DNA of 52,517 nucleotides. Origin: a virus. Taxonomy: Duplodnaviria > Caudoviricetes. The position numbers and the translations under genes are program-made. The notes beneath the pieces were generated by a model, which was not told where the DNA came from, ran no database searches, and worked only from the letters and a program-made list of their open reading frames with translations. The stretch covers positions 1 through 52,517 of IMG/VR virus record IMGVR_UViG_3300036770_002345, one strand, 5' to 3'. This document shows, piece after piece, positions 9,747-26,242 of the stretch (position 1 is the stretch's first letter; each line of letters begins with the position of its first letter).

Positions 9747-9944
9747 TTAATCATCGTCAATTTGTTTCGTGAGGTCAAGCAGTTCTCGTTCGGCGCGGGC
9801 CAAACCCTCGACAACACCACAACACCGCTTGTACTCAGCGAAGTCCACGCAGCCGCCACCGGCAATGTGATCGGCCATGTCGTTCATCTGCTGGCGTAGA
9901 GATTTACGCAGGTATTCTGCGAGATTATCGCTCGCGGTCTGCAT
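9747..9944 (-). CDS. small conserved head-module protein
   Basis: 65-aa helical ORF (D.AEY...G...GL) overlapping the portal stop. Confidence 0.65.
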   Translation of the reverse strand: MQTASDNLAEYLRKSLRQQMNDMADHIAGGGCVDFAEYKRCCGVVEGLARAERELLDLTKQIDDD

Positions 9945-12429
9945 TGCGTTCCCTCATGTCTTGTTCTCTTTGCTGGGCGGAGAGTAGATCCCGGGCAATT
10001 TCGACGCCTAGTTTCGCGCCTTGGACCTTGTCTCGGGAGGCAATCTCTTTGCTCTGAAGTTCGTTCGAGGCGTTGGTCGAAGCGATTTGAACGCCAAGCC
10101 TTGCGCCTTCGATACGTTCTTGAACCTTGAGACGCTCTTGTTCGGACTGCATCCGCATCTGGGCCTTTTGCATATCCGCTTGAACCTTCGCCATGTCGGC
10201 TTGGGCTTTTTGTTGGATTTCCTGAGCGCGAAGCTGGAGTTTCTGCATTTCCATTTGCAGTACCGGGTCTTGTTGTTCCTGCATCTGCTGCTGCATTTGG
10301 GCTTCGCGTTGGGCCTTTCCCAACACTTGCGCTGCCGCAGGGGCGACGAGTTCCGAGATACGGTATTCGATATCCTCGGGGAGGGGTTCCCCGGGAGGGG
10401 GGAGCTTGAGGCCGAGTTCTTTCTCGATCTGCTGGCGATAGGCAAAGGCCAAGTGTTCGGCCACATGCGCGGCCAATGCCGCTTGGAGAGCTTGAGCAGC
10501 CTGAGGAGCCTGCTGGAGCATTTGCTGAAGACGGGGATCTTGGCCGAAAGACATGTGGACCTGAATATGCGCTTCATGATCCTGATAGATAAACGCCTTG
10601 ATGGGTTTCATCGTGAGGGCGTTCATGTTCTCGGTGACCGGATCGGTCGGCGGAATCTCTTCCTTGTTCGGGAGAACCTCTTGCGGATCAGCAATCCCGA
10701 GGGCTTCGATCATCTGCCGGTGCAGCATGGGCAGGTCATACAACTGCGGGGCTTGGGAGGCGAGTTGCAATGCCGCCTGATATTTCATGATCCGCTGGGC
10801 CATGGTCCCGGCATTGGGATCGGATACCGGGATCACATCGATGCGATCATCGAAATCCTGTTTGGTAAGTTCTTTACCCGGGATGTCGTAGGGATATTCC
10901 GTAGGGCCGTAATCGAAAATAACCTGCGAAAGGAGTTTCAACTCCTTCTTCATGGAGGCGTGTAAACGGGCTTGGACCGCTGACAGCACCTTCATGGATC
11001 GTTCGATGATGGCGAGGGTGGTTCCGACCGGAGCCTCCCCGTTCATGTCCGCCACCTTCATGTCGGCTTGGGATGCGAACCTTCGGCCTTCATCGACGAT
11101 GTTGCCAAGCAATTGATAGAGGGTTCCCGAAGGCTCCTTGTAGGGGAGGAAGGTGATGTTATCGCGTAAGGCTCCGGACGGAATGTCCACATCACGGAAC
11201 TCACCCGGCATGATGGGGGTATCATCGCCTTTGATCCGGAGTCCGCGAGTTTTCAATCCGCCCGGAAGATTGGAAAGGGTTCCGGCGTCCACCAATTGGC
11301 GGAGGATGGACGTCGAAGACTTCGCCAGTCCTCCCACCAAATGGACTAATCCAAAGCCATAGAATCCGAGTCCGGGGATGTAGGTGTATTGGACGAAATG
11401 CTGGCGGCGTTTCTTTAAGGGATCATCTTCATACCAGTTCCGTCGAATCGATAGAATCAATCTAGAAGACTTATCGATGGTGATCACATAGGGCAACGCG
11501 ATTCCGGTGGGATTGCCCATGTCATCGGTGTCTTCGAAGCCGGGGAGATCATAATCCACCACCATCTCAAGGAGGGTGTAGCGGGAATCTAGATCCATTC
11601 CCTTTGATTCCCCGTTTAACTTGTCATAGGACTTCTGGATTTCGGTGATATCCGGGGACGGGGGAGGGAGATCCACATCAGAATAAAATCCTGAAACCTG
11701 CAACTTTCTAATTTCGTTGTAGGTTTTCTTCATGACATGGGTGGCCCGTTCGCAGGTCACCAAGTCAGTGGCCCCATACGACACCACGAAATCTTCTGCG
11801 GGAACGAAGATCGAAGCGGGTCTACCGAGGGAAGGATCGTAGTAGACCTTTCTGAATGCAGCGCCTGAGAGGGCAAGAGAAAAAAGAAGTTTCTCGGTCT
11901 CTGAGCGGTATTCGCTCATGCGTTCGGTCAAGAGATAGTTTAAATACTCTTGCACCCGCTGAGCTTGCTGCATTCTTTCGGGGGTGGTTTCACCCAAGAT
12001 CTTGGTTTGAACGGGGCCTCGGGCGGGGAAGATCTCTTGAATGGACTGGGCTTGGAAGCGAACAATGGCCTCGGAGAGCATGGGATGAAAGACCCCACAC
12101 GCGCCTTCCCATGGTTGGGTGCGATCTTCGATCTTGAGTCCTAAAAGATCGAGACCCTTGATGTAGGTGGTTTCCCATTCTTTGCGGGAATCCTTATCTG
12201 CATCGAAGAGGGTAACGAGTTCCGAAGCGATGTTCCCGAGAACCGAGTCATCGATAAACTCGGCGAGGTTGTCATCATGGGCGGCTTCCGAAAAGGGTTC
12301 CGCAGAGAGACTAATCTCCACGCCCCCATCTGGGAGTTCTACTACCACCCCTTCAGAAGGCGGTTCGACCGCAACTTCCATTGATCCTCCTCCCAACAGG
12401 GAGGGCATCAGAGCGCGATCTACACCCAT
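9925..12429 (-). CDS. portal protein with long C-terminal coiled coil (P22-like)
   Basis: D..SR..WE....GL.LLG...PWEGAC...HP.L.EA..RFQA...G.AF.KVYYD; Q-rich tail; follows terL. Confidence 0.88.
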   Translation of the reverse strand: MGVDRALMPSLLGGGSMEVAVEPPSEGVVVELPDGGVEISLSAEPFSEAAHDDNLAEFIDDSVLGNIASELVTLFDADKDSRKEWETTYIKGLDLLGLKIEDRTQPWEGACGVFHPMLSEAIVRFQAQSIQEIFPARGPVQTKILGETTPERMQQAQRVQEYLNYLLTERMSEYRSETEKLLFSLALSGAAFRKVYYDPSLGRPASIFVPAEDFVVSYGATDLVTCERATHVMKKTYNEIRKLQVSGFYSDVDLPPPSPDITEIQKSYDKLNGESKGMDLDSRYTLLEMVVDYDLPGFEDTDDMGNPTGIALPYVITIDKSSRLILSIRRNWYEDDPLKKRRQHFVQYTYIPGLGFYGFGLVHLVGGLAKSSTSILRQLVDAGTLSNLPGGLKTRGLRIKGDDTPIMPGEFRDVDIPSGALRDNITFLPYKEPSGTLYQLLGNIVDEGRRFASQADMKVADMNGEAPVGTTLAIIERSMKVLSAVQARLHASMKKELKLLSQVIFDYGPTEYPYDIPGKELTKQDFDDRIDVIPVSDPNAGTMAQRIMKYQAALQLASQAPQLYDLPMLHRQMIEALGIADPQEVLPNKEEIPPTDPVTENMNALTMKPIKAFIYQDHEAHIQVHMSFGQDPRLQQMLQQAPQAAQALQAALAAHVAEHLAFAYRQQIEKELGLKLPPPGEPLPEDIEYRISELVAPAAAQVLGKAQREAQMQQQMQEQQDPVLQMEMQKLQLRAQEIQQKAQADMAKVQADMQKAQMRMQSEQERLKVQERIEGARLGVQIASTNASNELQSKEIASRDKVQGAKLGVEIARDLLSAQQREQDMRERNADRER

Positions 12430-12439
12430 GGCTTTCCCC

Positions 12440-12649
12440 TTATAGGTCGGTGAACTTGCCGCCTTTAACGGCAGCACCCATCCCTCGGGCAGTTCCCTCG
12501 GTTCCCATGCTCATGCCACCGCCGTACATCTTCTTTGAACGCATGGCACCGCCCACCATCACCGGCTTCCCTTTGGACATTTTGTCCTTAGGTTGCTTGC
12601 GAGACTTCGGGGCTTCTTTCTTTTCAGACTTGTCTGTTTTGCCTTTCAT
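12440..12649 (-). CDS. small basic protein
   Basis: 69 aa, Lys-rich, ending ARGMGAAVKGGKF. Confidence 0.6.
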   Translation of the reverse strand: MKGKTDKSEKKEAPKSRKQPKDKMSKGKPVMVGGAMRSKKMYGGGMSMGTEGTARGMGAAVKGGKFTDL

Positions 12650-12660
12650 CGTTTAAATCC

Positions 12661-14169
12661 TCAGTAGTACGCCACTTTACGTTTATACACCGGTTCATCT
12701 TGTTGATCGGATTGAAGGGAAATAAATCCTCCCCTCCGATAACGGAGTAATGCCTGTGTGCAGGAGTCTACATAGTCATCATGCTCTCCGGCAGGAAAAG
12801 ACGCAAATTCCTCGACCACTTCCTCCGCAAAGCGTTTGTTCGGTCGCCACACTTTTCCACTGGCAAAGAGATCACTAATCGCATTCACACGGGCAATTTT
12901 ATCGTTCCCCCGAGAAGGGGTATATTCTGACACCGGAATCCCCATCGCACGAAGTTCGAAGATCAATGGGGTCCCTGCGGCCTTGGCTTCCACAATAAGG
13001 GAATCGGGCTTCCAGTAGTTGTAGAGTTCATAGGCTCTTTTCTTTAAGGTCGGGAACTCCATCTTCTCTCGATGGGCATCCATCAAAATCAGATTCGGTT
13101 GCATGACCCCAGACTCATCCGGGTGGTAGAAGACACCCCAAGTGGTACAGGCGGAGTAATCCGAGCGTTCGGATTTCAAGAATGCGGTGTCCCATGACTG
13201 GATCAAAAACTGACACTGTGGGGGATCTTCTCTATCCCATACCTTCCATGATTCGCGTTTAACCAGAGCGCCTTCTTCGGAGGTGGGATTCTGCTGATAC
13301 TGCGCCATCCACTTATGAACGGGGATTTCTTCCCGGATGGCTTCCAGTTCCTCTAGGGGCCAGAACTCCGGCCACAAAGGTTTCCCTGAAGGCATGATGG
13401 CGGGGAACTCGATGACCTCCCATTCATCCCCACCCCTCTGTGCAGAGGCTTTGAGGACCTGTCCGACGAGATCTCTCTTCGACCAACGGGTACAGATGAT
13501 GACAATGGCCCCACCGGGTTGAAGCCGTTGGCGGGGACCGGAGGTATACCATTCATAGGCATGGTCGAAGACGGACGGATCTGCCGATTGGCCCTCTTGT
13601 TCATCATGGGGATCATCGATAACGAGAATATCAGCACCTTTACCGGTCACGGCACCGCCAATACCGATGGCGAAGTAGTCACCGCCCTTGGAAGTACTCC
13701 ATCGACCTGCGGCTTTGGAGTCCGCACGGAGGGAAACATCCGGAAATACCTCCCGATAGGTGTCGGAATCCACCAAGTTACGCACTTTCCGACCAAATCC
13801 CACCGAAAGTTCCGCCGTGTGAGAGGCTTGGATCACCTTTTTGTGGGGGAACTTGCCCAAAAACCACGCTGGAAAGAGAAAAGACCCGAATTCTGACTTG
13901 GTGTGCCGAGGAGGCATGCAAATGATCAACCGTTTGAGCTTGCCTTCCGCAATTTCCTCAAACTTTTCCCCCATAATCTTGTGATGACGGCCCGAAATGA
14001 ACCCCGGCCACACCTTCTGCACAAACGGAATGAATCTTTCTTGGGCTAATTCCTTAGATTTCGCCCTTTCCCATTCCTCTAACAACCCTAACCATTCTTT
14101 CTGCTGATCAGGAGGGAGGTTTTGCACTAACCCCATGATTTTAGGAAGGTTTTCTACTGTTAGTTGCAC
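12661..14169 (-). CDS. terL: terminase large subunit
   Basis: Walker A variant MPPRHTKS, Walker B LVIDDP, nuclease SWDTA...IVEAKAAG...HDDYVDS; GTG start. Confidence 0.95.
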   Translation of the reverse strand: MQLTVENLPKIMGLVQNLPPDQQKEWLGLLEEWERAKSKELAQERFIPFVQKVWPGFISGRHHKIMGEKFEEIAEGKLKRLIICMPPRHTKSEFGSFLFPAWFLGKFPHKKVIQASHTAELSVGFGRKVRNLVDSDTYREVFPDVSLRADSKAAGRWSTSKGGDYFAIGIGGAVTGKGADILVIDDPHDEQEGQSADPSVFDHAYEWYTSGPRQRLQPGGAIVIICTRWSKRDLVGQVLKASAQRGGDEWEVIEFPAIMPSGKPLWPEFWPLEELEAIREEIPVHKWMAQYQQNPTSEEGALVKRESWKVWDREDPPQCQFLIQSWDTAFLKSERSDYSACTTWGVFYHPDESGVMQPNLILMDAHREKMEFPTLKKRAYELYNYWKPDSLIVEAKAAGTPLIFELRAMGIPVSEYTPSRGNDKIARVNAISDLFASGKVWRPNKRFAEEVVEEFASFPAGEHDDYVDSCTQALLRYRRGGFISLQSDQQDEPVYKRKVAYY

Positions 14170-14377: not shown

Positions 14378-14406
14378 ATTATATCACATTTAAGAAGGAA
14401 TGTCAA
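14378..14406 (-). promoter_or_regulatory. consensus sigma70 promoter for terL and the head operon
   Basis: TTGACA-17 nt-TATAAT with TGn extension and an A/T-rich UP-like tract upstream. Confidence 0.85.
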
Positions 14407-14459
14407 TAGTGTTTTTTAGAAATTTTTGCAAAAAATTTTTCTACATCTCACTTCCTTTC

Positions 14460-14713
14460 TACCTTAACACCCAACCCTACGGAACCTTACCCTACAGTAA
14501 CTCCCACGGAACTTAACCCCTATACCCCCACCTGTTGTTTTTAGACAACATAGGGGAAAAGTAGGGGATCGTTTGAGTGAAATCGTATGTATGGGTGCGC
14601 GCAGGTACCCGCCTGTGTGCGGGGGGGTGCGGGTGCGCGTTAGAGACGCGCAGGCGTGCGCGTTTAACCCCCCCGTGCGTGCGCGTAAGAACACCGCGCA
14701 GGCGCTCGCGCTT
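14460..14713. repeat. degenerate short repeats and alternating purine-pyrimidine tracts between terS and terL
   Basis: ACGGAAC twice in a C-rich stretch, CGCGCAGG three times, repeated GTGCGCG; no credible ORF. Confidence 0.5.
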
Positions 14714-15256
14714 CTACTGCAACACGGAACCCGCCGCGCCACTCGCGGCGTCCGACTCGGGCGACGGGCCGCACCCGTCGACTGAGGCGGTCTGGTCAAC
14801 GTCGCTTGCGTTTAAACCGTTCGACGCCAACAGGGTTGCGAGCTTGCGTTCCAGATCAGCCGCAACCAGTGCAGCCGGACGCTCACGGTTGTCCTCGATG
14901 ACGTCCCTGTAAAGGCCGCATGCCTTGCCTAGCAGTTCCGCTGCCCGTAGCTGCGTTTGGGTCGCGGGAACTTCGCCCTTTGACCATTGGCGTAGCAGAG
15001 TGACAAGCATATCCCTGTCAGAAACAGTGACTGCCTCACTTTTCCGCCTCTTTTCCGCCGCAAGTGCCTCGATGCACCCCGATATCTTCCCGTCCACCAT
15101 CAGTTCCGCCGCCCGTTTCTGCACACTCGCAGGCTTCATATTCTCGGCGTCATAGCTGTTTCGGTAGGACTCGGCCAAGTTCATGCCGCTGACTACGTTT
15201 TCGCAGAATTTCCGCTGTTTTGCAGTTAACCCGTATTCATCTGTCATGCCTGCCAT
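14714..15256 (-). CDS. terS: terminase small subunit
   Basis: LTAKQRKFC...G.....SYR..Y...A.ELM HTH; RAAELLGKA.GLY motif; upstream of terL. Confidence 0.85.
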   Translation of the reverse strand: MAGMTDEYGLTAKQRKFCENVVSGMNLAESYRNSYDAENMKPASVQKRAAELMVDGKISGCIEALAAEKRRKSEAVTVSDRDMLVTLLRQWSKGEVPATQTQLRAAELLGKACGLYRDVIEDNRERPAALVAADLERKLATLLASNGLNASDVDQTASVDGCGPSPESDAASGAAGSVLQ

Positions 15257-15430
15257 GATGCGTTTAACCCTTGTTTACAAGCTGATTTGCTAATCTTTGA
15301 CCATGCTGACTGCCTGATCTACTCACCGAATCCTACCCCTTGAGCCGTTTAACCGCAACTTTCAAAGAATTAAATTCAACCGATAATCAATGACTTAGCT
15401 GACAAGCTGATAAATTTATCGTTTAACCAG

Positions 15431-15459
15431 TTGACATGTGACCATGTTATCCGTAGAGT
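15431..15459 (+). promoter_or_regulatory. sigma70 early promoter P1
   Basis: TTGACA-17 nt-TAGAGT, divergent from terS. Confidence 0.75.
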
Positions 15460-15465
15460 GCGCTC

Positions 15466-15790
15466 CATCGGCGGCGAGAACAGCGAAAAGCACCGCAGCC
15501 GAGGAAGCGAAAAGCCAGACACTGCAAGCGAGCCGGAGGCTCCCCAGACTGGAAACATCGCGAAGGGTGGCGCCGCTGACACGGCTTGTGAGTACCAACA
15601 CCCGCTGCTGAGATGCAGCCGCACGGGGAACCCGTCAAGCGATACACCGCCCGCACTGAGGCGCGGGGCCATGTGAGTCGGCGAGCGTGAAGGAACTCGC
15701 GAGCATGGCCTGAAGCGAAGGTGCGGGGTTAACGGCTGATTGAGTAGAGCGCCCCTCGGGACGCTGCACTGAGTCAACCAACAACGTGGA
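15466..15790 (+). ncRNA. candidate structured early leader RNA
   Basis: about 330 nt with no credible ORF and many hairpins (GAGCC/GGCUC, GCUGC/GCAGC, ACGGG/CCCGU, GGCCAUG/CAUGGCC). Confidence 0.4.
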
Positions 15791-15799
15791 GTGCAAGCC

Positions 15800-15910
15800 A
15801 TGAGCAAGTCATTTAAACAAGCCATCAAGTCGAGCAAAAAGGGTCACTGGGAATTGCATCCGTTCGATGCGGTTCCGGTATGGGTTCCGGCCAAAAAGGG
15901 GGGCAAGTGA
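15800..15910 (+). CDS. 36-aa early protein (below ORF-track cut-off)
   Basis: GGAG RBS; MSKSFKQAIKSSKKGHWELHPFDAVPVWVPAKKGGK; TGATG coupling to the next ORF. Confidence 0.55.
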   Translation: MSKSFKQAIKSSKKGHWELHPFDAVPVWVPAKKGGK

Positions 15911-16014
15911 TGAACAAGCGTCAGCAATTCGCTTTTTCACTGTTCATTTTCGCAGTCTGTTTTGCGGCTGCAATTGCGCTGATTAGCGCGTGGCGTATCG
16001 GCTTAAGCATTTAA
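15910..16014 (+). CDS. 34-aa single-pass membrane early protein
   Basis: MNKRQQFAFSLFIFAVCFAAAIALISAWRIGLSI; translationally coupled start. Confidence 0.55.
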   Translation: MNKRQQFAFSLFIFAVCFAAAIALISAWRIGLSI

Positions 16015-16028
16015 GTGAGGGACAAGTG

Positions 16029-16412
16029 ATGTACGACGTTTACATGGATTCAGACCTTTACGAAGCGGGCCGACGATGCGACGGCCATCCTTTCATCGCC
16101 GAGCGATATTTCGCTCAGCTACAGGATGCGAACGGGCGTCGTTGGCGGCACAAGGTCGCGGTTAACGGCGCGGAGGATTTGGGTTGTGATGAGGATGGAT
16201 ATTCCCACTTCGCGGACTGCCGCGCAGAGGCCCAAGCCAAAATCGGCAAGCTAGTCGCTCGCGTCGAGGCTCATCTGGCCGCAGGCGGTTCGATCAACTT
16301 CGATCACTGGTACGAAGTCCGCCCCGCCTATGGATCGGATGAGTACATCGATCAGGGTATCGACTACCAAGATTGGCTCATCGAGCGGAATGAGGCACGG
16401 GGACGTTTTTGA
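16029..16412 (+). CDS. early hypothetical protein
   Basis: GAGG RBS; 127 aa; W....PAYGS..Y motif. Confidence 0.7.
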   Translation: MYDVYMDSDLYEAGRRCDGHPFIAERYFAQLQDANGRRWRHKVAVNGAEDLGCDEDGYSHFADCRAEAQAKIGKLVARVEAHLAAGGSINFDHWYEVRPAYGSDEYIDQGIDYQDWLIERNEARGRF

Positions 16413-16417
16413 TAACA

Positions 16418-16469
16418 GGCCGAAACGCCCCTCGGGGCGTCGCAGTGTGACGCACTGCCTGATGAGGCC
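16418..16469 (+). ncRNA. type II hammerhead ribozyme HHR1 (predicted cleavage 3' of C16441)
   Basis: GGCC-GAAA-CGCCC(CUCG)GGGCG-UC-GCAGUG(UGACG)CACUGC-CUGAUGA-GGCC: full core, three paired stems, GUC site. Confidence 0.93.
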
Positions 16470-16498
16470 CATCAGCAACTAACCCCATAGGTGCAAGC

Positions 16499-16690
16499 AT
16501 GGAATATCAAAACCTAAACAACGAAAAGCTAGTCGATGAGCTAGTGGCCGAGGCCGTCAGCTACATCAAGGAAAGTTTAAACAACGGCGAAAGTGAGGTT
16601 CTGGAGAGCTACTTCCGCGACGGATTCGAGGGATTCAAGAATCGGTCACGGCCTGAGCTACTCGAAGAATGCCGCCGAGTTTTTGGCTAG
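16499..16690 (+). CDS. 63-aa acidic early protein flanked by HHR1 and HHR2
   Basis: AGGTG RBS; stop overlaps HHR2 stem II. Confidence 0.7.
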   Translation: MEYQNLNNEKLVDELVAEAVSYIKESLNNGESEVLESYFRDGFEGFKNRSRPELLEECRRVFG

Positions 16691-16741
16691 GTCGAAACGG
16701 GCTTCGGCCCGTCGCACCGTGATGCGGTGCCTGATGAGACC
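16690..16741 (+). ncRNA. type II hammerhead ribozyme HHR2 (predicted cleavage 3' of C16713)
   Basis: GGUC-GAAA-CGGGC(UUCG)GCCCG-UC-GCACCG(UGAUG)CGGUGC-CUGAUGA-GACC. Confidence 0.95.
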
Positions 16742-16760
16742 AACCAACAGAGGTGCAAGC

Positions 16761-17030
16761 ATGATCCCCTACGGTTTAATCGTTTACACGCAGTATCGGG
16801 ATGACGGAACCATCGAAGCGAACGGCGGTTCCGGTCTACCCGTTGTCTCGATCCCTTTCGGCGAGTCCACGGCAAGTGGACGCGAGTCGCATCAACGTGC
16901 GGCCCTCGCGCTTGTCCGCAAAATCTACGGCAGCGAGGGTGCATGGCGAATCGTCGCCCGTGGAGACAACCCCTCGGGTTGCGGGTTCGCGTTCGTTTTT
17001 GTGCAGGGTGCAGTGAGGGAAGCCGCATGA
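16761..17030 (+). CDS. early hypothetical protein
   Basis: GAGGTG RBS after HHR2; 89 aa starting MIPYG. Confidence 0.65.
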   Translation: MIPYGLIVYTQYRDDGTIEANGGSGLPVVSIPFGESTASGRESHQRAALALVRKIYGSEGAWRIVARGDNPSGCGFAFVFVQGAVREAA

Positions 17031-17206
17031 ACATCCAAGTCGAACAACGCAACGTGTACGGATCGATCAAATTCTATCCGGTCAATGAGTTGGCCGAGCA
17101 ATTCGCTCGGCTAATGAAACAGAAAACTTTTGATGCGGGAAACCTTGCGGATATCAAACGCATGGGAATCAACATCGAAGTTCGCGTACCAACCATCAAC
17201 TTTTGA
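17027..17206 (+). CDS. early hypothetical protein
   Basis: ATGA overlap; NVYG...YP....A..FA.L...KT motif common in phage early genes. Confidence 0.7.
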   Translation: MNIQVEQRNVYGSIKFYPVNELAEQFARLMKQKTFDAGNLADIKRMGINIEVRVPTINF

Positions 17207-17215
17207 GGTGCAATC

Positions 17216-17470
17216 ATGAGTTTTAAATTTAGCCTTGGCCCTTGGAGGCCGTCATACGGCATGTTCGTTCATGCCGCGAACAACGAATGGGTCGCGCTAG
17301 TAAAGGGCGACGATGATGAGAAAAAAGAAGCCAACGCCCGTTTAATCGCCGCTGCGCCGTACATGCTGCTCTGCCTTCGCAATGTGATCGATTCGCATGG
17401 CGAAGTAGATCAGGATCTTTGGAATCGCATCCGCGAAGCCATTGCCAATGCAACGGGGGACGCATCATGA
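17216..17470 (+). CDS. early hypothetical protein
   Basis: GPW...ANARLIAAAP motif common in phage early genes. Confidence 0.75.
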   Translation: MSFKFSLGPWRPSYGMFVHAANNEWVALVKGDDDEKKEANARLIAAAPYMLLCLRNVIDSHGEVDQDLWNRIREAIANATGDAS

Positions 17471-17619
17471 GTGACTTTGAACAAATCGAACTCGCGTTCG
17501 ACATTCTGGAATCAGCGGAAGTCGTGGAAGTGTTCGACGATTTTCTGCTGATCAAAGTTCCCCGAGAAGAATGGAACCAACTCAACGCATGCCCCTACCA
17601 TGAGCGGGACTGTGCGTAG
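17467..17619 (+). CDS. 50-aa acidic early protein
   Basis: ATGA overlap; stop overlaps HHR3 stem II. Confidence 0.6.
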   Translation: MSDFEQIELAFDILESAEVVEVFDDFLLIKVPREEWNQLNACPYHERDCA

Positions 17620-17670
17620 GCCGAAACCCGCTCCGGCGGGTCTGGCGGTGATGCCGCCACTGATGAGGCC
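17619..17670 (+). ncRNA. type II hammerhead ribozyme HHR3 (predicted cleavage 3' of C17642)
   Basis: GGCC-GAAA-CCCGC(UCCG)GCGGG-UC-UGGCGG(UGAUG)CCGCCA-CUGAUGA-GGCC; loop I UGAUG complementary to the downstream CAUCA. Confidence 0.95.
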
Positions 17671-17695
17671 CATCAGCGTCTAAACAAAAAACTTG

Positions 17696-17725
17696 TTGAC
17701 ATGTTCACAGTGCAGCGTTTACACT
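17696..17725 (+). promoter_or_regulatory. sigma70 early promoter P2
   Basis: TTGACA-18 nt-TACACT in ACTTGTTGACA context with an A-tract upstream. Confidence 0.7.
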
Positions 17726-17773
17726 GCGAAACATTCGAACAGCGCACCAACAAAACAGCAGGAGTTTTCACCC

Positions 17774-18379
17774 ATGTTCACTGAAAGAGAAACTTGGCTA
17801 GCCGCCGCCGCCGTCGCACTTCAGCACGAAGTGTTCACCGCCGCCCATATCGATCCCGCGCAATGGCAACAACGCAAGTATCGTGTCGCTTGCGGGTTCC
17901 CCATTGGCTACCGTGGGAGCCGCTCCGGCAAAATCACCCTCGGTCAGGCATTCGATCCGTCCATTTCGGCGGACGGAACCTTCGAGGTGTTCATCAACCC
18001 CATCCTCGACAAGCCGCTCGACGTCATCGCGGTACTCGCCCATGAGTTTGGGCATGTGCATGCGGGGATCGAGTGCGGTCACCGTGGCGAATTCGCCCGA
18101 GTGTCCCGTGCCATTGGCCTCGAAGGCCCGTTGACTTCCACGGTTCCGAGTGACGCCCTGCGCGTCAAGTTGCAGGGGATCGTGGATGTGTTGGGGGCCT
18201 ACCCGCATGCCAAAGTCGATCCGAATGCCCGCAAGAAACAGGGGACTCGGCTGCTCAAGTTGCAGTGCAGTTCCTGCGGGTGGACGGCTCGGGTCTCGGC
18301 CTTGCAGGGCAATCGTTTACACGCTGCGTCTGCATGCCCCGTGTGCAACAGCATCAACTCACTCATCGTGGAGGGCTGA
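17774..18379 (+). CDS. SprT-like zinc metalloprotease with C-terminal Zn ribbon
   Basis: LAHEFGH...GH.GEF; CSSC...CPVC; CAGGAG RBS. Confidence 0.8.
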   Translation: MFTERETWLAAAAVALQHEVFTAAHIDPAQWQQRKYRVACGFPIGYRGSRSGKITLGQAFDPSISADGTFEVFINPILDKPLDVIAVLAHEFGHVHAGIECGHRGEFARVSRAIGLEGPLTSTVPSDALRVKLQGIVDVLGAYPHAKVDPNARKKQGTRLLKLQCSSCGWTARVSALQGNRLHAASACPVCNSINSLIVEG

Positions 18380-18381
18380 TC

Positions 18382-19383
18382 ATGTCCAAGCGTACTTTCT
18401 CGCTGCCGCTGTCTGACAGCGACCGTGCCTACCTGAAAATGCACTCGGTGCGACAGGGCAAGTCGCCGAATGCTTCGGACGATGTGCTTCTCGCGGTCTG
18501 GAACGGGGTTGATCCCGCCCCCGTCCGTGCGGAACTGGATGCCGAGACCATCGAGTCGATTCGCCGTGACGCTGTCGCAGCAGCCGTTGCGGCAGTCGAA
18601 CAGCACCGCCCCGTTCGCATCGAACTCAAGCAGGGTGCGGAGATTCGTACCCTGCCTGAGGGTCACCGTCACCCCGTGTTCGCGGACGTCTTAGCGGCCC
18701 TCTCCGTGCGTGAGAATGTGTATTTGGTTGGCCCCGCAGGGTCAGGCAAAACCACCATCGCGTCGCAGTCTGCTCACGCTCTGGATATCCCGTTTTACTC
18801 GACGGGTGCAGTGGGCATGCCGTACCAGTTGCTCGGGTTCCTGAACGCCGAAGGGCGGTACATGGAGACCGACTTGTATCGGGCCTATGTGAACGGTGGC
18901 GTGTTCCTGTTCGATGAAATCGATGCGTCATCCGCGCAGGCACTGCTCGCATTCAATGCGATTGCCGCCAATGACCTTGCCGCCTTTCCTATCGGGACGG
19001 TTAAACGGCATCCGGACTTTGTGATCATCGCCGCCGCGAATACATGGGGATCGGGTGCGACTGCCGAGTATGTGGGCCGCGCCCAACTCGACGCCGCTAC
19101 GCTTGATCGATTCGCGTTCATCAGCATGGACTATGACGAGCGTCTGGAACTTGCGATTGCAAGTAATGACGAGTGGACGCGCCATGTCCAAGCGTTCCGC
19201 CGCATCACCCGCGAGTTGAAAATTCGCTGCGTCGTGTCGCCCCGTGCGTCGATCAAGGGCGGCAAGTTACTCAGCGCGGGTCTCAAGTGGAATCGCGTCG
19301 AGGAAATGCTTTTGATTCGCGGACTGTCGGCCAATGAAGTCGAACAAATTCGCTATCAATTACCCGCGAGGAAAGTCGCATGA
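18382..19383 (+). CDS. MoxR/CbbQ-type AAA+ ATPase
   Basis: GPAGSGKT, FLFDEID, HPDF..IAAANT.G.G...YVGR.QLDAATLDRF, SPR. Confidence 0.88.
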   Translation: MSKRTFSLPLSDSDRAYLKMHSVRQGKSPNASDDVLLAVWNGVDPAPVRAELDAETIESIRRDAVAAAVAAVEQHRPVRIELKQGAEIRTLPEGHRHPVFADVLAALSVRENVYLVGPAGSGKTTIASQSAHALDIPFYSTGAVGMPYQLLGFLNAEGRYMETDLYRAYVNGGVFLFDEIDASSAQALLAFNAIAANDLAAFPIGTVKRHPDFVIIAAANTWGSGATAEYVGRAQLDAATLDRFAFISMDYDERLELAIASNDEWTRHVQAFRRITRELKIRCVVSPRASIKGGKLLSAGLKWNRVEEMLLIRGLSANEVEQIRYQLPARKVA

Positions 19384-20159
19384 TTTACCGCTACAACGCA
19401 GACTCATGGGATGAATTCATCCGCGACCTACGCACCCGCAAAATCAACTGGTGCGATGACGGCTCCGAAGGACGGGGTAGCCGCAGTTGGTATGGGTGTC
19501 GGTCATGGGAAGAGGCCCTCGACTATGCAGCGAAGGGTCACCCCTCTGCCCGTGCCGCAGTCGATTCGGTCACCGTTAAGGTAACGTCCGCACCGGAACC
19601 GCTCTGGGATGTCGCCCCTGTCGGCGCGTTCCCGTGCATCCCTGCCTATGCCGCAGGGGTTCCCGAGGACATGTTCGTGCAGTCCGAGGATGCACCGCCG
19701 ACTTCGACACCGATTGTCAAAATCGCAGTCAACATGGCTGCGAGTGCGGGCATCGATGCGGATCACATTGTCAATCGCGGTGCTGCGATTGTGACATTGA
19801 TCGACCGCATCCAATCGACAGGGCGGCGGGTGGAGTTGATCGCGTTCCAACACTGCTACAGCGGTGACAACAAATACATTTGGAGCGTGACGGTTAAACG
19901 CCCTGAGGAACCGGTCAACATCGACCGTATCGGTCTCGCATTCGCGACGCCGATCATGCTCCGCCGGTTCTTCTTTCGGGTCATGGAATTCATGACACCG
20001 CGAGTCGTATATGGGTATGGAAAACCTACGCACTTCGAGGATGAGTGCAACGGGTTCCACCTAACGATCCCGAACATCAGGGGCAGCGACTACTGCACCC
20101 CTGATGCCGCGAATCGTACCGTGCAGGGTCTCTGGGAGAGGGCGGCACTCGCCGCCTGA
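19380..20159 (+). CDS. putative VWA-like partner of the MoxR ATPase
   Basis: ATGA-coupled to the ATPase; G.P..M followed by an alpha/beta core; MIDAS degenerate. Confidence 0.55.
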   Translation: MIYRYNADSWDEFIRDLRTRKINWCDDGSEGRGSRSWYGCRSWEEALDYAAKGHPSARAAVDSVTVKVTSAPEPLWDVAPVGAFPCIPAYAAGVPEDMFVQSEDAPPTSTPIVKIAVNMAASAGIDADHIVNRGAAIVTLIDRIQSTGRRVELIAFQHCYSGDNKYIWSVTVKRPEEPVNIDRIGLAFATPIMLRRFFFRVMEFMTPRVVYGYGKPTHFEDECNGFHLTIPNIRGSDYCTPDAANRTVQGLWERAALAA

Positions 20160-20179
20160 TCCCCCCCACAAAATACTTG

Positions 20180-20209
20180 TTGACAACAGAACAACGACAC
20201 AACTAAACT
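20180..20209 (+). promoter_or_regulatory. sigma70 early promoter P3
   Basis: TTGACA-18 nt-TAAACT; same ACTTGTTGACA context and CACCAAC...CAGCAGGAG leader as P2. Confidence 0.7.
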
Positions 20210-20236
20210 TTGAAACACCAACAGCAGGAGAGCGAC

Positions 20237-20446
20237 ATGAGCAGCAGGATTCCAGTTCTTTTAACGCAGCAACAAATCGATTACATCATGGCCTATGCCA
20301 CTCGCATGGAACTCCATGCGATTGATGCTGATCGTCCGGTGTCACAGCAGTTCTACGTCGATCTTTTTCAGGCGTTGTTCGACGCGAAACAAGACGCCGA
20401 CAATGAACGTCAAGCCGAACTGAATTACGAAAGGGGTGCAGCATGA
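20237..20446 (+). CDS. early hypothetical protein
   Basis: CAGGAG RBS; 69 aa. Confidence 0.65.
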   Translation: MSSRIPVLLTQQQIDYIMAYATRMELHAIDADRPVSQQFYVDLFQALFDAKQDADNERQAELNYERGAA

Positions 20447-20649
20447 AGCGTTTCGCAGTGCATAACACAGGCGACTATGTCCGCGATAACTACGGGGTCA
20501 AGCGTGAGCCTGCAAAGGTTGAAGAGTTCGACAGCCTTGAGGACATGCCGCCCTTCGCCCGCAAGCAGTTCGAGTGGATGCTTGAGCAGGGTGAAATCGT
20601 GATCTCGATGGGCAGCACGGTCTATCAAATTCGGAAGGTGCAATCATGA
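20443..20649 (+). CDS. early hypothetical protein
   Basis: ATGA-coupled 68-aa ORF. Confidence 0.65.
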   Translation: MKRFAVHNTGDYVRDNYGVKREPAKVEEFDSLEDMPPFARKQFEWMLEQGEIVISMGSTVYQIRKVQS

Positions 20650-20855
20650 GCATTCAACAAAAACTCGAAGCGGTTTCGCCCGCTGCCAAATATGCGTACC
20701 ACATTGGCGTGAACCGTGCGGGGCGTGACAACGCATTGAGCCGCGCCAGAATCGAGACGGACGCATGGCGAAAGCATTGGATACACATTGCCCGTGCATA
20801 CCATTTAAACATGATGGGGTGGATCGCCATCCTGAACATAGGGGAACAGCAATGA
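20646..20855 (+). CDS. early hypothetical protein
   Basis: ATGA-coupled 69-aa ORF. Confidence 0.6.
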   Translation: MSIQQKLEAVSPAAKYAYHIGVNRAGRDNALSRARIETDAWRKHWIHIARAYHLNMMGWIAILNIGEQQ

Positions 20856-20986
20856 CCAGAGCAGACAAAATTGGTGGGGCCATTCGACTCGGGTTGATTG
20901 CCCTGATTTATATCCTCGCAGGATTCATTGAGCCTTGCGACAACGAACCCAACTGCCATGCTCCAAAGGAGTTTAAACATGAGTGA
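20852..20986 (+). CDS. small membrane protein
   Basis: ATGA-coupled; hydrophobic stretch LGLIALIYILAGFI. Confidence 0.55.
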   Translation: MTRADKIGGAIRLGLIALIYILAGFIEPCDNEPNCHAPKEFKHE

Positions 20987-21170
20987 TCCTTATGCCGCCA
21001 TGCTCGATGCCGAGTACCGCGAACTCAAGGCACAGCTACATCGCCATGCGGCGAAGTTCGAAGCCTTGCAGGCACAGTACCTGCGCGAGTCCAATCAGCT
21101 ATCGGATGCACTCACAAAAAAATGGATTGAGTTACAACAACACCGACAGGAGATGTCCCGTGGACAATAA
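20979..21170 (+). CDS. coiled-coil hypothetical protein
   Basis: AAGGAG RBS; 63 aa helical. Confidence 0.6.
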   Translation: MSDPYAAMLDAEYRELKAQLHRHAAKFEALQAQYLRESNQLSDALTKKWIELQQHRQEMSRGQ

Positions 21171-21324
21171 TCAAATTGTTTTTCTGCTACAAAAGATCCT
21201 GCTTGGGCAGGCGAAGATCGAAGAACGGATCAAGGTAATCGAACAGGCACTGGCGTCAGACCCATGGACGCAGGGCCGTGGCGAGGGCGAGTACGAAGAG
21301 TTCGAAAACGAAATCCCTTTTTGA
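21160..21324 (+). CDS. small protein ending in an SSB-like acidic tail
   Basis: CAGGAG RBS, GTG start; ends EEFENEIPF. Confidence 0.6.
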   Translation: MDNNQIVFLLQKILLGQAKIEERIKVIEQALASDPWTQGRGEGEYEEFENEIPF

Positions 21325-21334
21325 GGTGACCACT

Positions 21335-21664
21335 ATGAACGAAGAACGCATGTTTGTTGATCCCGAGACCGGTGACATGCATCCGGAGTCCTACTATCGG
21401 ATGGAGAACATCGACCTCGATACCCTGCTAGAGGCTGTCGAAATGGACGGTGATCTAGCGTTCGAAATCAAGGTGCAAAACCTTGAACGCATGAACATCA
21501 AGCACCCTGTGGTGTTCGCTATCTTTGCAGACTTCTGCCAATCTATGCGGGAAGCTGCCGAGCAGGCCGAGAGCGACGATGATCGAGAGACCTTTGAGAA
21601 TGTCGCTGCGTACACGGCGCGGGTGATGCTTCAAAAGTTGGGCAAGAAGGTGACCCAACATTGA
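21335..21664 (+). CDS. acidic hypothetical protein
   Basis: GAGGTG RBS; 109 aa. Confidence 0.65.
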   Translation: MNEERMFVDPETGDMHPESYYRMENIDLDTLLEAVEMDGDLAFEIKVQNLERMNIKHPVVFAIFADFCQSMREAAEQAESDDDRETFENVAAYTARVMLQKLGKKVTQH

Positions 21665-21855
21665 TTGAGTTCAAAGATGCGGAGGGGAACACTCTGGTCT
21701 GGGTGTTCCCTTCCGAAGGACGGTTCTGGAAAGACCGGTGGATCGCCTTCACTAATTCAGGCGAATTTATTTATCACAAAGGATCTAAAGACTCTGCTTA
21801 TAATTGGGCGAGAGAGTATGTGAGTCAGGTAAACAAAGAGGAGACGAGAGCATGA
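21661..21855 (+). CDS. hypothetical protein
   Basis: TTG start overlapping the upstream stop. Confidence 0.55.
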   Translation: MIEFKDAEGNTLVWVFPSEGRFWKDRWIAFTNSGEFIYHKGSKDSAYNWAREYVSQVNKEETRA

Positions 21856-22040
21856 AAAAATTGATTGTGTTGATGGCTGTGTTGGCGAGCGCGTCAGCGT
21901 TTGCTCAGAACAGAACGGCGTTCTTCAAGTACGAGCGGGTAACCGGTTCGACCAAGCAGTGTTACTACGACTATTTGGGTAGCGAGTATGTCCGCACCAT
22001 GCGGTCTATCGATCTCTGCCCCTTGACGATTCGCGTTTAA
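21852..22040 (+). CDS. small secreted protein
   Basis: signal peptide MKKLIVLMAVLASASAFA; two Cys in the mature part. Confidence 0.7.
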   Translation: MKKLIVLMAVLASASAFAQNRTAFFKYERVTGSTKQCYYDYLGSEYVRTMRSIDLCPLTIRV

Positions 22041-22054
22041 ACTCCTTCAGTGGG

Positions 22055-22090
22055 AACCCCGATACCTGTCATGGGTGTCGGGGTTTTTTT
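22055..22090 (+). terminator. Rho-independent terminator of the early operon
   Basis: AACCCCGAUACC...GGUGUCGGGGUU hairpin followed by a U-run. Confidence 0.85.
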
Positions 22091-22571
22091 ATTTCAGGAC
22101 TCTATCAATCGGTAACAGTTCGTTTTGTGTGGCGGCATAGCCTTCGCCATGACCCAAGTTAATCAGCCGACTTGGCTGAATGAGTTCCGTCGAACTCATG
22201 AATCCCGCACAACGATATGTCGGGAACTCCCCCACCATCAGCACAAAGAGATCGACCTTCGTCACATCCTTCCACCGCACCGAGAGCAATCGCCCTGAGG
22301 CGTAGGTGGTGGACTTCACATCGACCGCCCTGCCATCTCGAAGATAGCAATCGGCAGCGTTGGTGTGATCGAGATCTAAATCAGGGTAGATGTTCGCGAG
22401 TTTACAAAAGGCAATCTCTGAGGCGATCCCCTCAAGGTCAGTGAGTTCGTTCGACTGATCCCCCATCTTCGCATTGAAGAGTCCCTTCGCCCTCGCGTTC
22501 TGGTATCGGCGAGTGGCTAGGAACTTAGCAAGCCTTTGCTCTGCTTCACTCAGCACAATGAACTGGCTCAC
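22089..22571 (-). CDS. PD-(D/E)xK-like nuclease-fold protein
   Basis: G..SE.AF...D.......VDVKST motif. Confidence 0.6.
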   Translation of the reverse strand: MSQFIVLSEAEQRLAKFLATRRYQNARAKGLFNAKMGDQSNELTDLEGIASEIAFCKLANIYPDLDLDHTNAADCYLRDGRAVDVKSTTYASGRLLSVRWKDVTKVDLFVLMVGEFPTYRCAGFMSSTELIQPSRLINLGHGEGYAATQNELLPIDRVLK

Positions 22572-25357: not shown

Positions 25358-26242
25358 ATGAAACTCACCAATAAATATGGATTGCCTGACACCGTTGTTC
25401 GTGCGTTAACCCGTAGCGAATACAGTAAAGGCGAGAGCAATCGATCCATTACCCAACTCATCGATTCCCCCCGTGTTCGTATTCTCAGGCAAGAGAATTG
25501 GAACAACATGGAAGAGGATGTCAGTGAAAAGATGTGGGCGGTACTAGGCTCTGCCGCACATCGAATGTTTGAGGAAACCGGTGATGATAAGCACATTACC
25601 GAGGAGAGATTGTTCTGCGAGATCGAAGGTTGGGTGATCAGTGGGGCCATCGATGTTCAAAGAATTGATGAGGATGGCATCACCATCATGGACTACAAGA
25701 CCACCAGTGTGTGGTCTGTGATCCTCGGCAAAGAGTCTTGGGAAACCCAGTTGAATTGCTATGCGTCCCTCGTTCGCCGTGCCAAGAACCAGAGAGTCAA
25801 AGCTCTCAAGGTGGTGGCTATCTTGCGCGACTGGAACCGACGCGATGCTGAAGAAAAGCAGGACTACCCGAAGGCTCCCATTGTCGAGATCGATATCCCG
25901 ATGTGGCTCGAAGACAAACAGGATCAGTACCTCGAAGACCGTGTCAAGTTACACCAAGAGGCTGAGTTCCAACGGCTCATGGGTGAAGAACTTCCTGAGT
26001 GTTCTAAAGAAGAACGATGGGAGAAGCCTTCCGTGTGGGCGGTTAAGAAGACGGGCAACAAGCGGGCTATAAAACTTTATAGCCATGAGCAGGAAGCCAA
26101 AGATGCTTTGTTGACCGGTCAAGAAATTGAGTTCCGTCGTGGGGAACCTACCCGTTGTTCAGCCAACTGGTGTCGTGTAAACGCATGGTGTTCCCAGTAT
26201 AAAAAATATCTGGATGAAACATCAGAGAACGACTTGACCTGA
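25358..26242 (+). CDS. PD-(D/E)xK (RecB/Cas4-like) exonuclease
   Basis: S.TQL...G.A.H...E...SG.ID.......DYKT...QLN.Y; C-terminal RC...C....C.Q. Confidence 0.85.
   Translation: MKLTNKYGLPDTVVRALTRSEYSKGESNRSITQLIDSPRVRILRQENWNNMEEDVSEKMWAVLGSAAHRMFEETGDDKHITEERLFCEIEGWVISGAIDVQRIDEDGITIMDYKTTSVWSVILGKESWETQLNCYASLVRRAKNQRVKALKVVAILRDWNRRDAEEKQDYPKAPIVEIDIPMWLEDKQDQYLEDRVKLHQEAEFQRLMGEELPECSKEERWEKPSVWAVKKTGNKRAIKLYSHEQEAKDALLTGQEIEFRRGEPTRCSANWCRVNAWCSQYKKYLDETSENDLT

Follow-up and report, generated by a model that had tools for sequence, protein, structure and literature searches.

The stretch of DNA considered here, referred to below as the window, is the whole of the virus record IMGVR_UViG_3300036770_002345 of the IMG/VR database (Duplodnaviria; Caudoviricetes), a linear record of 52,517 bases with a CheckV completeness of 86%. 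Within it, three motifs between positions 16418 and 17670 have the form of type II hammerhead ribozymes, and the evidence set out below supports the view that they are genuine type II hammerheads, placed on the coding strand between the cistrons of one transcription unit. Their most likely function, which we hold to with moderate confidence, is a self-processing of the transcript that would uncouple the cistrons and standardise their ends. The motifs, labeled HH1 to HH3, are listed with their predicted cleavage sites and their scores against Rfam and against a covariance model of the clade:

16418-16469, plus strand: HH1, type II hammerhead, predicted cleavage between 16441 and 16442; Rfam 26.6 bits, clade model 68.4 bits
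16690-16741, plus strand: HH2, type II hammerhead, predicted cleavage between 16713 and 16714; Rfam 29.5 bits, clade model 73.7 bits
17619-17670, plus strand: HH3, type II hammerhead, predicted cleavage between 17642 and 17643; Rfam 29.0 bits, clade model 72.2 bits

Each of the motifs is 52 nucleotides (nt) long and consists, in this order, of the 5′ strand of stem II, GAAA, the stem III hairpin, UC, the stem I hairpin, CUGAUGA and the 3′ strand of stem II, which is the type II permutation, with stems I and III capped by loops and stem II open. The 5′/3′ strands of stem II are GGCC/GGCC in HH1, GGUC/GACC in HH2 and again GGCC/GGCC in HH3, the helix comprising 4 base pairs (bp), next to 6 bp in stem III (including A15.1-U16.1) and 6-7 bp in stem I, with zero mispairs. 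The loop of stem I has 3-5 nt, and the GC-rich stem III ends in 4-nt loops, which are UUCG, UCCG and CUCG in the window and of the GNRA type in relatives. Core positions C3-A9, G12-A14, A15.1-U16.1 and C17 are all intact in the three copies, the pairs that flank the core (10.1-11.1, 1.1-2.1 and 15.1-16.1) are standard, and the three-way junction is the predicted minimum-free-energy fold of each isolated 52-mer (-24.9 to -28.2 kcal/mol). A descriptor scan of both strands of the window returned exactly 3 matches, all on the plus strand and 0 on the minus strand, against a chance level of 0.035 matches on average and 1 at most in 200 first-order Markov random sequences. The three same-strand copies span 1,253 nt, with one cistron between the first two and four between the last two. 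The original prediction, which had named the three 52-nt motifs at these positions together with their cores, the differences between their stems and cleavage after 16441, 16713 and 17642, is confirmed by the reading of the sequence and by the descriptor scan.

Two other identities of the motifs were tried and rejected. Intrinsic terminators were dismissed as all three motifs are devoid of a T run. Promoters of an N4-type virion RNA polymerase came into question on account of stem I, a 7-bp stem closed by a 3-nt loop, and of a 3,209-amino-acid (aa) protein of the phage that weakly matches such a polymerase; against this reading stand the invariant core, the covariation of the three stems as RNA and the occurrence of the motif in many other phage contigs.

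Relatives of the locus, 29 related viral loci in all, were found via the 201-aa protein encoded at 17774-18379, and the clade model was built from 12 distinct copies taken from the window and these relatives. The model gives 40 matches with an expectation value (E) of at most 1 in 279,657 bases, of which 37, all on the gene strand, have E≤5.8e-7, the three others, at E about 0.3, being probably noise. In the 12-copy alignment, 190 of 190 cells pair, both sides have changed in 9 of 16 pairs, with compensatory changes in stems I and III, and the core columns are invariant, N7 excepted. The covariation score of 0.608 compares with 0.135 ± 0.030 in shuffles, none of 500 reaching 0.608, and with at most 0.133 when the partners were slid by 1-3 columns. 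Taken as sequence evidence, this pattern supports selection on the hammerhead fold.

The position of the hammerhead is conserved as well. Of the 17 assessable relatives (≥78% identity), 16 have a copy upstream of their homologue of the 17774 gene, at a distance of ~30-105 nt; in locus L025 the distance is 390 nt, with one small open reading frame (ORF) between, and locus L005, in which the contig ends too near the gene, was left out of this count. In the group with ~59% identity, one copy is found ~2.5-3 kb downstream in 4 of 6 loci, none in one and a doubtful match in one, and in the group with 43-48% identity no hammerhead was found with either the descriptor or the clade model. The copies number from 1 to 4 per related locus and belong to the same operon; of five whole related records, a complete genome with terminal repeats holds 1 copy and the four others hold 2, 1, 4 and 0, in this operon only. 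As a separate observation, the position of HH3 is occupied in many relatives (L004:4849-4927, L007:4833-4911, L015:4868-4945, L016:4892-4969 and others) by a hammerhead of 78-79 nt with an insertion of ~27 nt in stem III, the outer stem of which covaries and which contains the conserved stretch GGGCUUGAUCGCCAAC; this insertion could represent an added domain or a binding site.

The placement of the motifs with respect to the flanking genes is equally stereotyped. HH1 starts 5 nt after the TGA at 16410-16412 and 2 nt after an in-frame TAA at 16413-16415, and the first G of HH2 and of HH3 is the third base of a TAG (16688-16690 and 17617-17619, respectively), all three abutting stops ending plus-strand ORFs, so that the claim of a start at or within 5 nt of a stop codon on the coding strand holds for every one of the motifs. 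HH2 is followed by the linker AACCAACA and then by a Shine-Dalgarno sequence. In the window and relatives together, 33 of 36 copies, many of which come from near-identical contigs, begin at one of two points, 1 nt within the stop codon (UA|G, with the G opening stem II) or 2 nt past it (UAA-CA). HH1 departs from this rule with its 5 nt (2 nt when counted from the second stop), as do the copy in L010 (8 nt) and that in L016, where no ORF of at least 30 aa is present.

The same arrangement is met far outside this clade. A scan of IMG/VR with the pattern of stem II and core gave at least 120 stretches with at least 143 distinct copies of this subfamily on diverse contigs. Of the 143 copies among the matches listed, 113 have an ORF of at least 30 codons that ends between -9 and +1 relative to where the hammerhead begins, most often at -2 (33), +1 (32) or 0 (15); the corresponding figure for random positions on the same loci and strand is 1,455 of 14,300 (10.2%). 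The base preceding stem II is an A in 141 of these 143 copies, as it is at the first position of the Rfam consensus, and a Shine-Dalgarno-like motif occurs within ~30 nt on the 3′ side in 116 of them, the latter being a raw count with no control set. At least 20 of the 113 loci with distinct copies hold two or more. In one IMG/VR contig (L144:1247-4847), eight same-strand copies of the subfamily are found in ~3.6 kb, each after the end of an ORF, and several of them are followed by an unusual CACACACA-rich linker. Judged from these contigs, the series of stop codon, hammerhead, A/C-rich linker, Shine-Dalgarno sequence and start codon is a recurrent phage module, and the arrangement in the window is typical of a widespread feature.

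The transcription unit to which the hammerheads belong is composed of the following parts:

15431-15459, plus strand: sigma-70-like promoter (TTGACA, 17 nt, TAGAGT), likely start of the operon; 10 of 12 matches in a consensus scan, a pattern match only
15467-15799, plus strand: GC-rich untranslated leader of ~330 nt between the promoter-like site and the first cistron
15737-15791, plus strand: element of the 5′ untranslated region (UTR) made up of a hairpin, then CACUGAGUC, then an AACCAAC linker and a Shine-Dalgarno sequence; conserved 82-88% in most relatives
15800-15910, plus strand: cistron, 36 aa
15910-16014, plus strand: cistron, 34 aa, hydrophobic
16029-16412, plus strand: cistron, 127 aa, phrog_1507 (function unknown)
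16499-16690, plus strand: single acidic 63-aa ORF enclosed by HH1 and HH2, no family assigned
16761-17030, plus strand: first of four cistrons between HH2 and HH3, which have overlapping stops and starts
17027-17206, plus strand: second of these cistrons
17216-17470, plus strand: third of these cistrons, phrog_1273
17467-17619, plus strand: fourth of these cistrons
17696-17725, plus strand: internal sigma-70-like promoter (TTGACA, 18 nt, TACACT) between HH3 and the next gene; a pattern match only
17774-18379, plus strand: 201-aa protein (phrog_6361) that has an HExxH (HEFGH) motif and, at its C-terminus, two CxxC pairs; the query used to find relatives
22052-22088, plus strand: strong intrinsic-terminator-like hairpin of 17 pairs with a T run, the only such hairpin downstream on the plus strand

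Since the sole strong terminator-like hairpin on the plus strand is the one at 22052-22088, read-through from 15431 across the whole of this region is plausible. The "early" status of the operon is inferred from its sigma-70-like promoters and its small genes of no known function.

In the mechanism that we propose, HH1 to HH3 would be active ribozymes at the intergenic junctions of a single sigma-70-driven phage operon, and a transcript started near 15466 would cut itself after 16441, 16713 and 17642. The products would be a piece of ~976 nt with three cistrons, one of 272 nt with the 63-aa cistron, one of 929 nt with four cistrons, and a remainder carrying the 17774 gene onward. The upstream piece would in each case retain its stop codon and 24-29 nt beyond it, its 3′ end consisting of the GC-rich stem III tetraloop hairpin and a 2′,3′-cyclic phosphate; a length of 24-29 nt past the stop is enough for normal termination without the triggering of ribosome rescue. 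The downstream piece would begin with a 5′-OH placed directly on the stem I hairpin, with no single-stranded overhang. The rest of the core would come next and, after HH1 and HH2, an A/C-rich linker devoid of structure that leads to the Shine-Dalgarno sequence of the gene itself. Cleavage would in this way uncouple adjacent cistrons and give each of them context-free 5′ and 3′ ends, as a result of which their stability and translation may differ. The hairpin-capped units that had been predicted agree with the anatomy, which places the stem III hairpin on the upstream RNA and the stem I hairpin with its 5′-OH on the downstream RNA if cleavage takes place. Next to the observed anatomy, selection on the fold and stereotyped placement, we infer cleavage in vivo, its rate and its effects on RNA decay or translation.

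A processing of this kind has precedents. Prophage hammerheads that are clustered and that flank single genes or short gene blocks were described in 2011 together with the same processing hypothesis (PMC3088659), three tandem sets having been found to cleave polycistronic RNAs of ~2 kb in vitro and a triple set from Agrobacterium to cleave in E. coli (PMC3088659); reviews of 2017 and 2019 repeat these findings and call the biological role open (PMC6155905, PMC6765202). The protein-free processing of the polycistron put forward in the original prediction thus stands as the best reading of the sequence, carried by the identity of the hammerheads, their intercistronic placement on the coding strand, the selection on their fold and their anatomy, but it had been proposed already in 2011, and the accompanying statement that isolated phage hammerheads are known was too weak in view of the clustered, gene-flanking prophage examples (PMC3088659). 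As in the prophages treated by Perreault et al. (Clostridium scindens, Azorhizobium caulinodans and the ardA locus of Agrobacterium tumefaciens; PMC3088659), the hammerheads of the window lie on the same strand within ~1-2 kb and flank single genes or blocks of small genes that vary between relatives, and the role proposed is the same. In contrast to those prophages, which reside in sequenced bacteria, the carrier is an uncultivated, apparently lytic-type phage record of 52.5 kb, and the flanked genes match no known function.

Three type II hammerheads near phage-like genes have been found to be active in cells of Desulfovibrio vulgaris by cyPhyRNA-seq (PMC8782182). These resemble HH1 to HH3 in their type, in their location near hypothetical or phage-like genes and in that two of them are close together, and differ in being chromosomal, with longer fragments (29-32 and 39 nt) and with measured activity (PMC8782182), that of HH1 to HH3 being predicted. 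Compared with the seed of RF02276, the Rfam type II family (Hammerhead_II, clan CL00010), with which they share the core and the conserved A just 5′ of stem II, the motifs of the window are more compact (52 nt, with a stem I of 6-7 bp and a loop of 3-5 nt).

The analogy to the RNase III sites of phage T7, which formed part of the original prediction, applies to the function and not to the structure. The sites in the T7 early transcript are cut between cistrons, with a hairpin left at the 3′ ends of the upstream products; they are long imperfect duplexes, and they are cut by a host protein that leaves a 5′-phosphate and a 3′-OH. Likewise, HH1 to HH3 stand between cistrons of a polycistronic phage mRNA and are predicted to give hairpin-ended upstream products, but each is a three-way junction that is predicted to cut itself and to leave a 5′-OH and a 2′,3′-cyclic phosphate; an extended imperfect duplex of the T7 type is not found in them, no helix exceeding 7 bp.

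As for the downstream product, the closest parallel is the RiboJ device, the sTRSV ribozyme with a 23-nt hairpin before a ribosome binding site (PMC6206723), which resembles the motifs of the window in the removal of upstream RNA and in the hairpin-capped standard 5′ leader, both predicted for the latter. In E. coli, RiboJ inserted ahead of a ribosome binding site raised the transcript about twofold and the protein twofold to tenfold, an effect ascribed by its authors partly to the residual 5′ hairpin (PMC6206723). A second hairpin beside the first, as in RiboJ, is also predicted to form in the 3′ products of HH1 and HH3. RiboJ differs in that it is engineered, of type III origin and located after a promoter, whereas HH1 to HH3 are natural, of type II and located after stop codons inside an operon.

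The opposite outcome of cleavage has to be considered as well, namely that the 5′-OH end is degraded by a host 5′-to-3′ exonuclease, or that read-through RNA is removed before the 17696 promoter, so that downstream expression would be lowered or limited. The enzyme that acts on the 5′-OH product of the glmS ribozyme is RNase J1. In line with such an outcome, the mRNA cleaved by glmS is then degraded by cellular RNases (PMC6765202), and HH3 ends the block of small genes right before a promoter-like site, with no terminator between 15431 and 22052. This down-regulation or insulation would, however, depend on the RNases of the host; the 5′ end left after cleavage would be paired in stem I with no single-stranded overhang; and behind HH1 and HH2 there are good ribosome binding sites, belonging to genes for which there is presumably a need. 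We consider it quite unlikely as the main function. The related claim that the 5′-OH end would stabilise the RNA comes out as host-dependent, since in hosts that possess a 5′-to-3′ exonuclease such an end can mark the RNA for decay, as it does with glmS (PMC6765202).

A further use of the cleaved ends would be their ligation. Because stem II is the sole open helix and is near-identical in all copies, the halves of successive hammerheads could reassemble via stem II to give a circular RNA of 272 nt or a spliced RNA. The 3′ strand GGCC of HH1 pairs with the 5′ strand GGUC of HH2 with one G-U pair, GGUC/GACC is common to all of the relatives' copies, and the ends predicted to result from cleavage are ends that hammerheads can ligate; RtcB, too, can ligate ends of this type. 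On the other hand, GACC of HH2 and GGCC of HH3 mismatch; GGUC/GACC is the commonest stem II of the subfamily among the unrelated-phage matches listed, so that no special compatibility is needed to account for it; and Perreault et al. state that spliced or circular products were sought and none found (PMC3088659). Such ligation is judged very improbable.

Several points weigh against the self-processing reading preferred here. The Rfam scores of 26.6-29.5 bits are below the gathering score of 37 bits, which is a curated score threshold and not a structural criterion; the search of the whole window at the gathering threshold accordingly returned no family, and RF02276 matched HH1 to HH3 over model positions 1-66 in a 1.5-kb search of 16300-17800 at an E-value threshold (E 0.0015-0.0087). 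The Rfam check suggested in the original prediction thus gives full-length matches at the E-value threshold and comes out empty at the default cut-off because of these scores, and the identification rests on the intact core, the pairing and the covariation in relatives. The copies in the alignment were found by a descriptor that itself demands pairing, which inflates the percentage of paired cells and in part predetermines it, but has no such effect on how many pairs are compensatory or on the conserved placement. HH3 is followed by a promoter-like site and not directly by a ribosome binding site, and the argument from a standard leader is weak for HH3 because of this order. As HH3 closes the block of small genes and a promoter-like site comes next, its role may differ from that of the others and may lie chiefly in the removal of read-through RNA from the unit behind it. 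The direction of any effect on stability depends, moreover, on the RNases of the host. The pseudoknot between loop I and the 3′ tail, with at least 4 bp, which is present in most type II examples and is needed for fast cleavage in many of them (PMC3088659), is absent in HH2 and shows no excess in the subfamily, runs of 4 or more being found in 10 of the 139 copies listed as compared with 8.3 ± 2.5 for re-dealt tails; because of this, the rates of cleavage at cellular Mg2+ could be low. The match of loop I to the tail is 5 bp in HH3 (loop I UGAUG), a 3-bp run in HH1 (4 of 5 with one mismatch) and a run of at most 2 bp in HH2. Finally, the folding of HH1 and HH3 predicts a core-sequestering hairpin that equals the active fold in stability or exceeds it (0.7-3 kcal/mol).

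That the motifs are chance matches or decayed, inactive relics would agree with Rfam scores under the gathering score and with the finding that the Rfam model at E≤10 also matches in 11 of 14 control genomes. This is, however, hardly credible in view of three full matches on one strand where 0.035 are expected, and of the compensatory changes and the conserved position in relatives.

The core-sequestering hairpin just mentioned is formed by a short tail behind two of the motifs:

16470-16476, plus strand: 3′ tail of HH1, CAUCAGC; from folding and family-wide covariation
17671-17677, plus strand: 3′ tail of HH3, CAUCAGC, identical to that of HH1; from folding

HH2 is devoid of this tail. CAUCAG is the exact complement of CUGAUG of the core (6 bp), and the resulting 6-bp hairpin would exclude the active fold, because the 3′ strand of stem II sits in its loop. 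Where RF02276 typically has the pseudoknot between loop I and the tail, HH1 and HH3 instead have this core-complementary tail, the pseudoknot being without support in the subfamily. When 12 nt on the 3′ side are included, the predicted minimum-free-energy fold is this alternative hairpin (-28.2 vs -27.5 kcal/mol for HH1 and -30.7 vs -29.0 for HH3), as it is in the 3′ cleavage products of both. In a longer context of HH1, the tail is predicted to pair instead with an upstream UUGAU that overlaps the stop codons, which extends stem II and makes the active fold the one of minimum free energy.

The tail is not confined to the window. RUCAG directly follows stem II in 18 of 143 copies among the matches listed, where 0.6 would be expected, and its first base covaries with N7, which is the sole free position of the core. 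In this smaller set the combinations are U7/A 14, C7/G 3, U7/G 1 and C7/A 0 (Fisher 0.005); in a scan for all four combinations, the 120 distinct matches comprise U7/A 85, C7/G 23, U7/G 7 and C7/A 5; and in the verified full hammerheads they are U7/A 69, C7/G 7, U7/G 1 and C7/A 0, which gives a Fisher value of 3e-9 over 63 distinct stem I sequences with shared ancestry uncorrected. The copies of relatives at the position of HH3 have C7, paired with a tail GUCA.

We read the tail as a selected alternative hairpin, which would act as an off state, delaying cleavage or making it conditional, or else as a lock that forms once cleavage has taken place. The wider proposition, that a subset of the type II hammerheads of phages, including HH1 and HH3, has a selected anti-core tail (RUCAG:CUGAN7) that turns the ribozyme into a two-state device, is advanced tentatively. 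Such a device might work in one of two ways: cleavage might be held back until a ribosome loading at the Shine-Dalgarno sequence, or one terminating at the abutting stop, opens the hairpin, or else the hairpin might snap shut after cleavage, which would rule out a reversal of the cut and cap the 5′ end so formed. As an account of what the motifs in the window mainly do, a conditional or delayed cleavage, in which the CAUCAG-CUGAUG hairpin of HH1 and HH3 switches the ribozyme off until it is melted by ribosomes or by slow refolding, or locks the 3′ product after cleavage, is less probable by a good way than plain self-processing, and it refines that explanation rather than excluding it. The folding with 12 nt of context and of both 3′ products speaks for it, as do the excess of RUCAG among the copies listed, the covariation of tail and N7, and the pairing of C7 with GUCA in relatives at the HH3 position. 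At the same time, HH2 and most of the relatives' copies are without the tail, the covariation is uncorrected for shared ancestry, a protein-bound DNA palindrome would give the same pattern, the energy models ignore the tertiary contacts of the hammerhead as well as Mg2+, and the active fold of HH1 with its extended stem II is the more stable one in the longer context. A search of the literature, the supplements of PMC3088659 being outside its scope, found no description of an anti-core tail.

While the hammerheads recur among the relatives, the genes between them are mosaic. Among relatives that are 78-86% identical in the 201-aa protein, the genes between hammerheads differ strongly, the recurrent parts being the promoter region, the 55-nt 5′ UTR element, two small genes and the hammerheads. 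Set against the locus L012, the window is short of one gene and one hammerhead, and the two homology blocks overlap in the shared linker at 15775-15791. Variants of stem I and stem III occur in differing combinations across the copies, and the GGCC/GGCC stem II and identical 7-nt tail common to HH1 and HH3 are in none of the relatives' copies found, which suggests an exchange within the genome.

These observations fit hammerhead modules that travel with small accessory genes or mediate their exchange, and they raise the alternative that the modules are in the first place portable cassette junctions, through which small accessory genes could be acquired, dropped or exchanged while the adjacent genes stay undisturbed, the repeats serving as points of recombination. 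The mosaic upstream genes and the 1-4 copies among the relatives with 78-86% identity agree with this, as do the junction in the shared linker of the L012 comparison, the differently combined variants of stems I and III with the stem II and tail confined to HH1 and HH3, and the presence in the phage of a Sak-like annealing protein and a PD-(D/E)XK nuclease. One DNA contig of run X4 in addition joins 15727 to 16689 with seven other letters between; little weight is given to it, because at 80% likeness contigs of unrelated phages that share just the hammerhead also end there. The shared stretches are just 9-17 nt long, and phage early regions without ribozymes are commonly mosaic too. A primary role as cassette junctions is regarded as rather improbable, on a par with conditional cleavage. 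Metagenome contigs (runs X1, X4, X8 and X18) tend to start, end or branch at the hammerheads, at 16440-16760 and 17620-17680, as would be expected if the motif is a repeat common to several co-occurring phage variants.

The genes flanked by the hammerheads have 0 matches of known function, and searches with the 63-aa ORF and its neighbours against Pfam, PHROGs and PADLOC gave nothing usable on function. To judge from its motifs, the 201-aa protein behind the internal promoter resembles a small zinc metalloprotease that carries a zinc ribbon; on the 3′ side of its gene there follow an AAA ATPase (phrog_249, with weak IetA matches) and then a DUF7192 protein, and this trio is conserved down to 43% identity. 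At the other end of the operon, the region 15250-15451 is conserved 70-82% in relatives, and the leader at 15467-15799, which may be a structured RNA, is conserved 72-75% across ~340 nt in L015, L016 and L017. The leader has no credible family match in Rfam, and the ORFs overlapping it (15376-15837 on the minus strand and 15431-15676 on the plus strand) have no match in PHROG. The 5′ UTR element at 15737-15791 is similar to the 3′ product of hammerhead cleavage, and it may be what is left of a hammerhead or may have converged on this design; a hidden fourth hammerhead upstream of the 15800 gene was rejected, the core being absent and the hairpin and the shared linker being all that aligns with the L012/L004 hammerhead.

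The remainder of the record contains the following genes:

6084-6992, minus strand: capsid protein, by family matching
9925-12477, minus strand: portal protein, by family matching
12661-14169, minus strand: large terminase, by family matching
14714-15256, minus strand: small terminase, by family matching
22568-24253, minus strand: primase-helicase, by family matching
25358-26242: PD-(D/E)XK nuclease
26286-26990: Sak-like annealing protein
33844-43473, minus strand: 3,209-aa ORF, phrog_21376 (function unknown), residues 140-414 weakly matching virion RNA polymerase (E 3.9e-5)

The three large ORFs neighbouring the last of these have no family match. A leftward promoter of perfect sigma-70 consensus (14378-14406, minus strand; TTGACA, 17 nt, TATAAT, with an upstream TG) points to the large-terminase block and is adjoined by short pyrimidine-rich direct repeats at 14440-14570. 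By the large terminase, the nearest deposited phages are the Pelagibacter phages HTVC027P and HTVC023P and the aquatic phages 023Pt_psg01 and DSL-LC04, with 52-55% identity. No match of 14500-22000 to deposited phages was obtained with blastn, nor any match of the hammerhead clade model in these four phages, which is weak evidence, as the prefilter passed no candidates. Near-identical DNA of the locus is found in subsurface, pond, freshwater, estuary and other aquatic metagenomes, and the sequencing runs listed for 15400-18400 are DNA runs, none of them RNA.

With respect to what is new, the processing mechanism of the original prediction is an already published hypothesis, and three hammerheads in a phage operon are, taken alone, ordinary. 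[quoted passage not shown] The main text of PMC3088659 contains 0 occurrences of "stop codon", a count that does not extend to its supplementary alignments and locus maps, and a literature search for hammerheads at stop codons or ribosome binding sites in prophages found nothing relevant.

The locus offers a clean comparative case, in which close relatives carry 1 to 4 copies of a hammerhead at gene junctions, the phase of which is fixed with respect to the stop codon on one side and the ribosome binding site on the other. The phase to the stop codon and the tail that would shut the core give testable predictions, which tie self-cleavage to translation and to the swapping of small accessory genes. 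If the two-state reading is true, the anti-core tail together with the layout of stop codon, hammerhead, linker and Shine-Dalgarno sequence would make these elements natural, portable and translation-aware insulators of phage gene cassettes.

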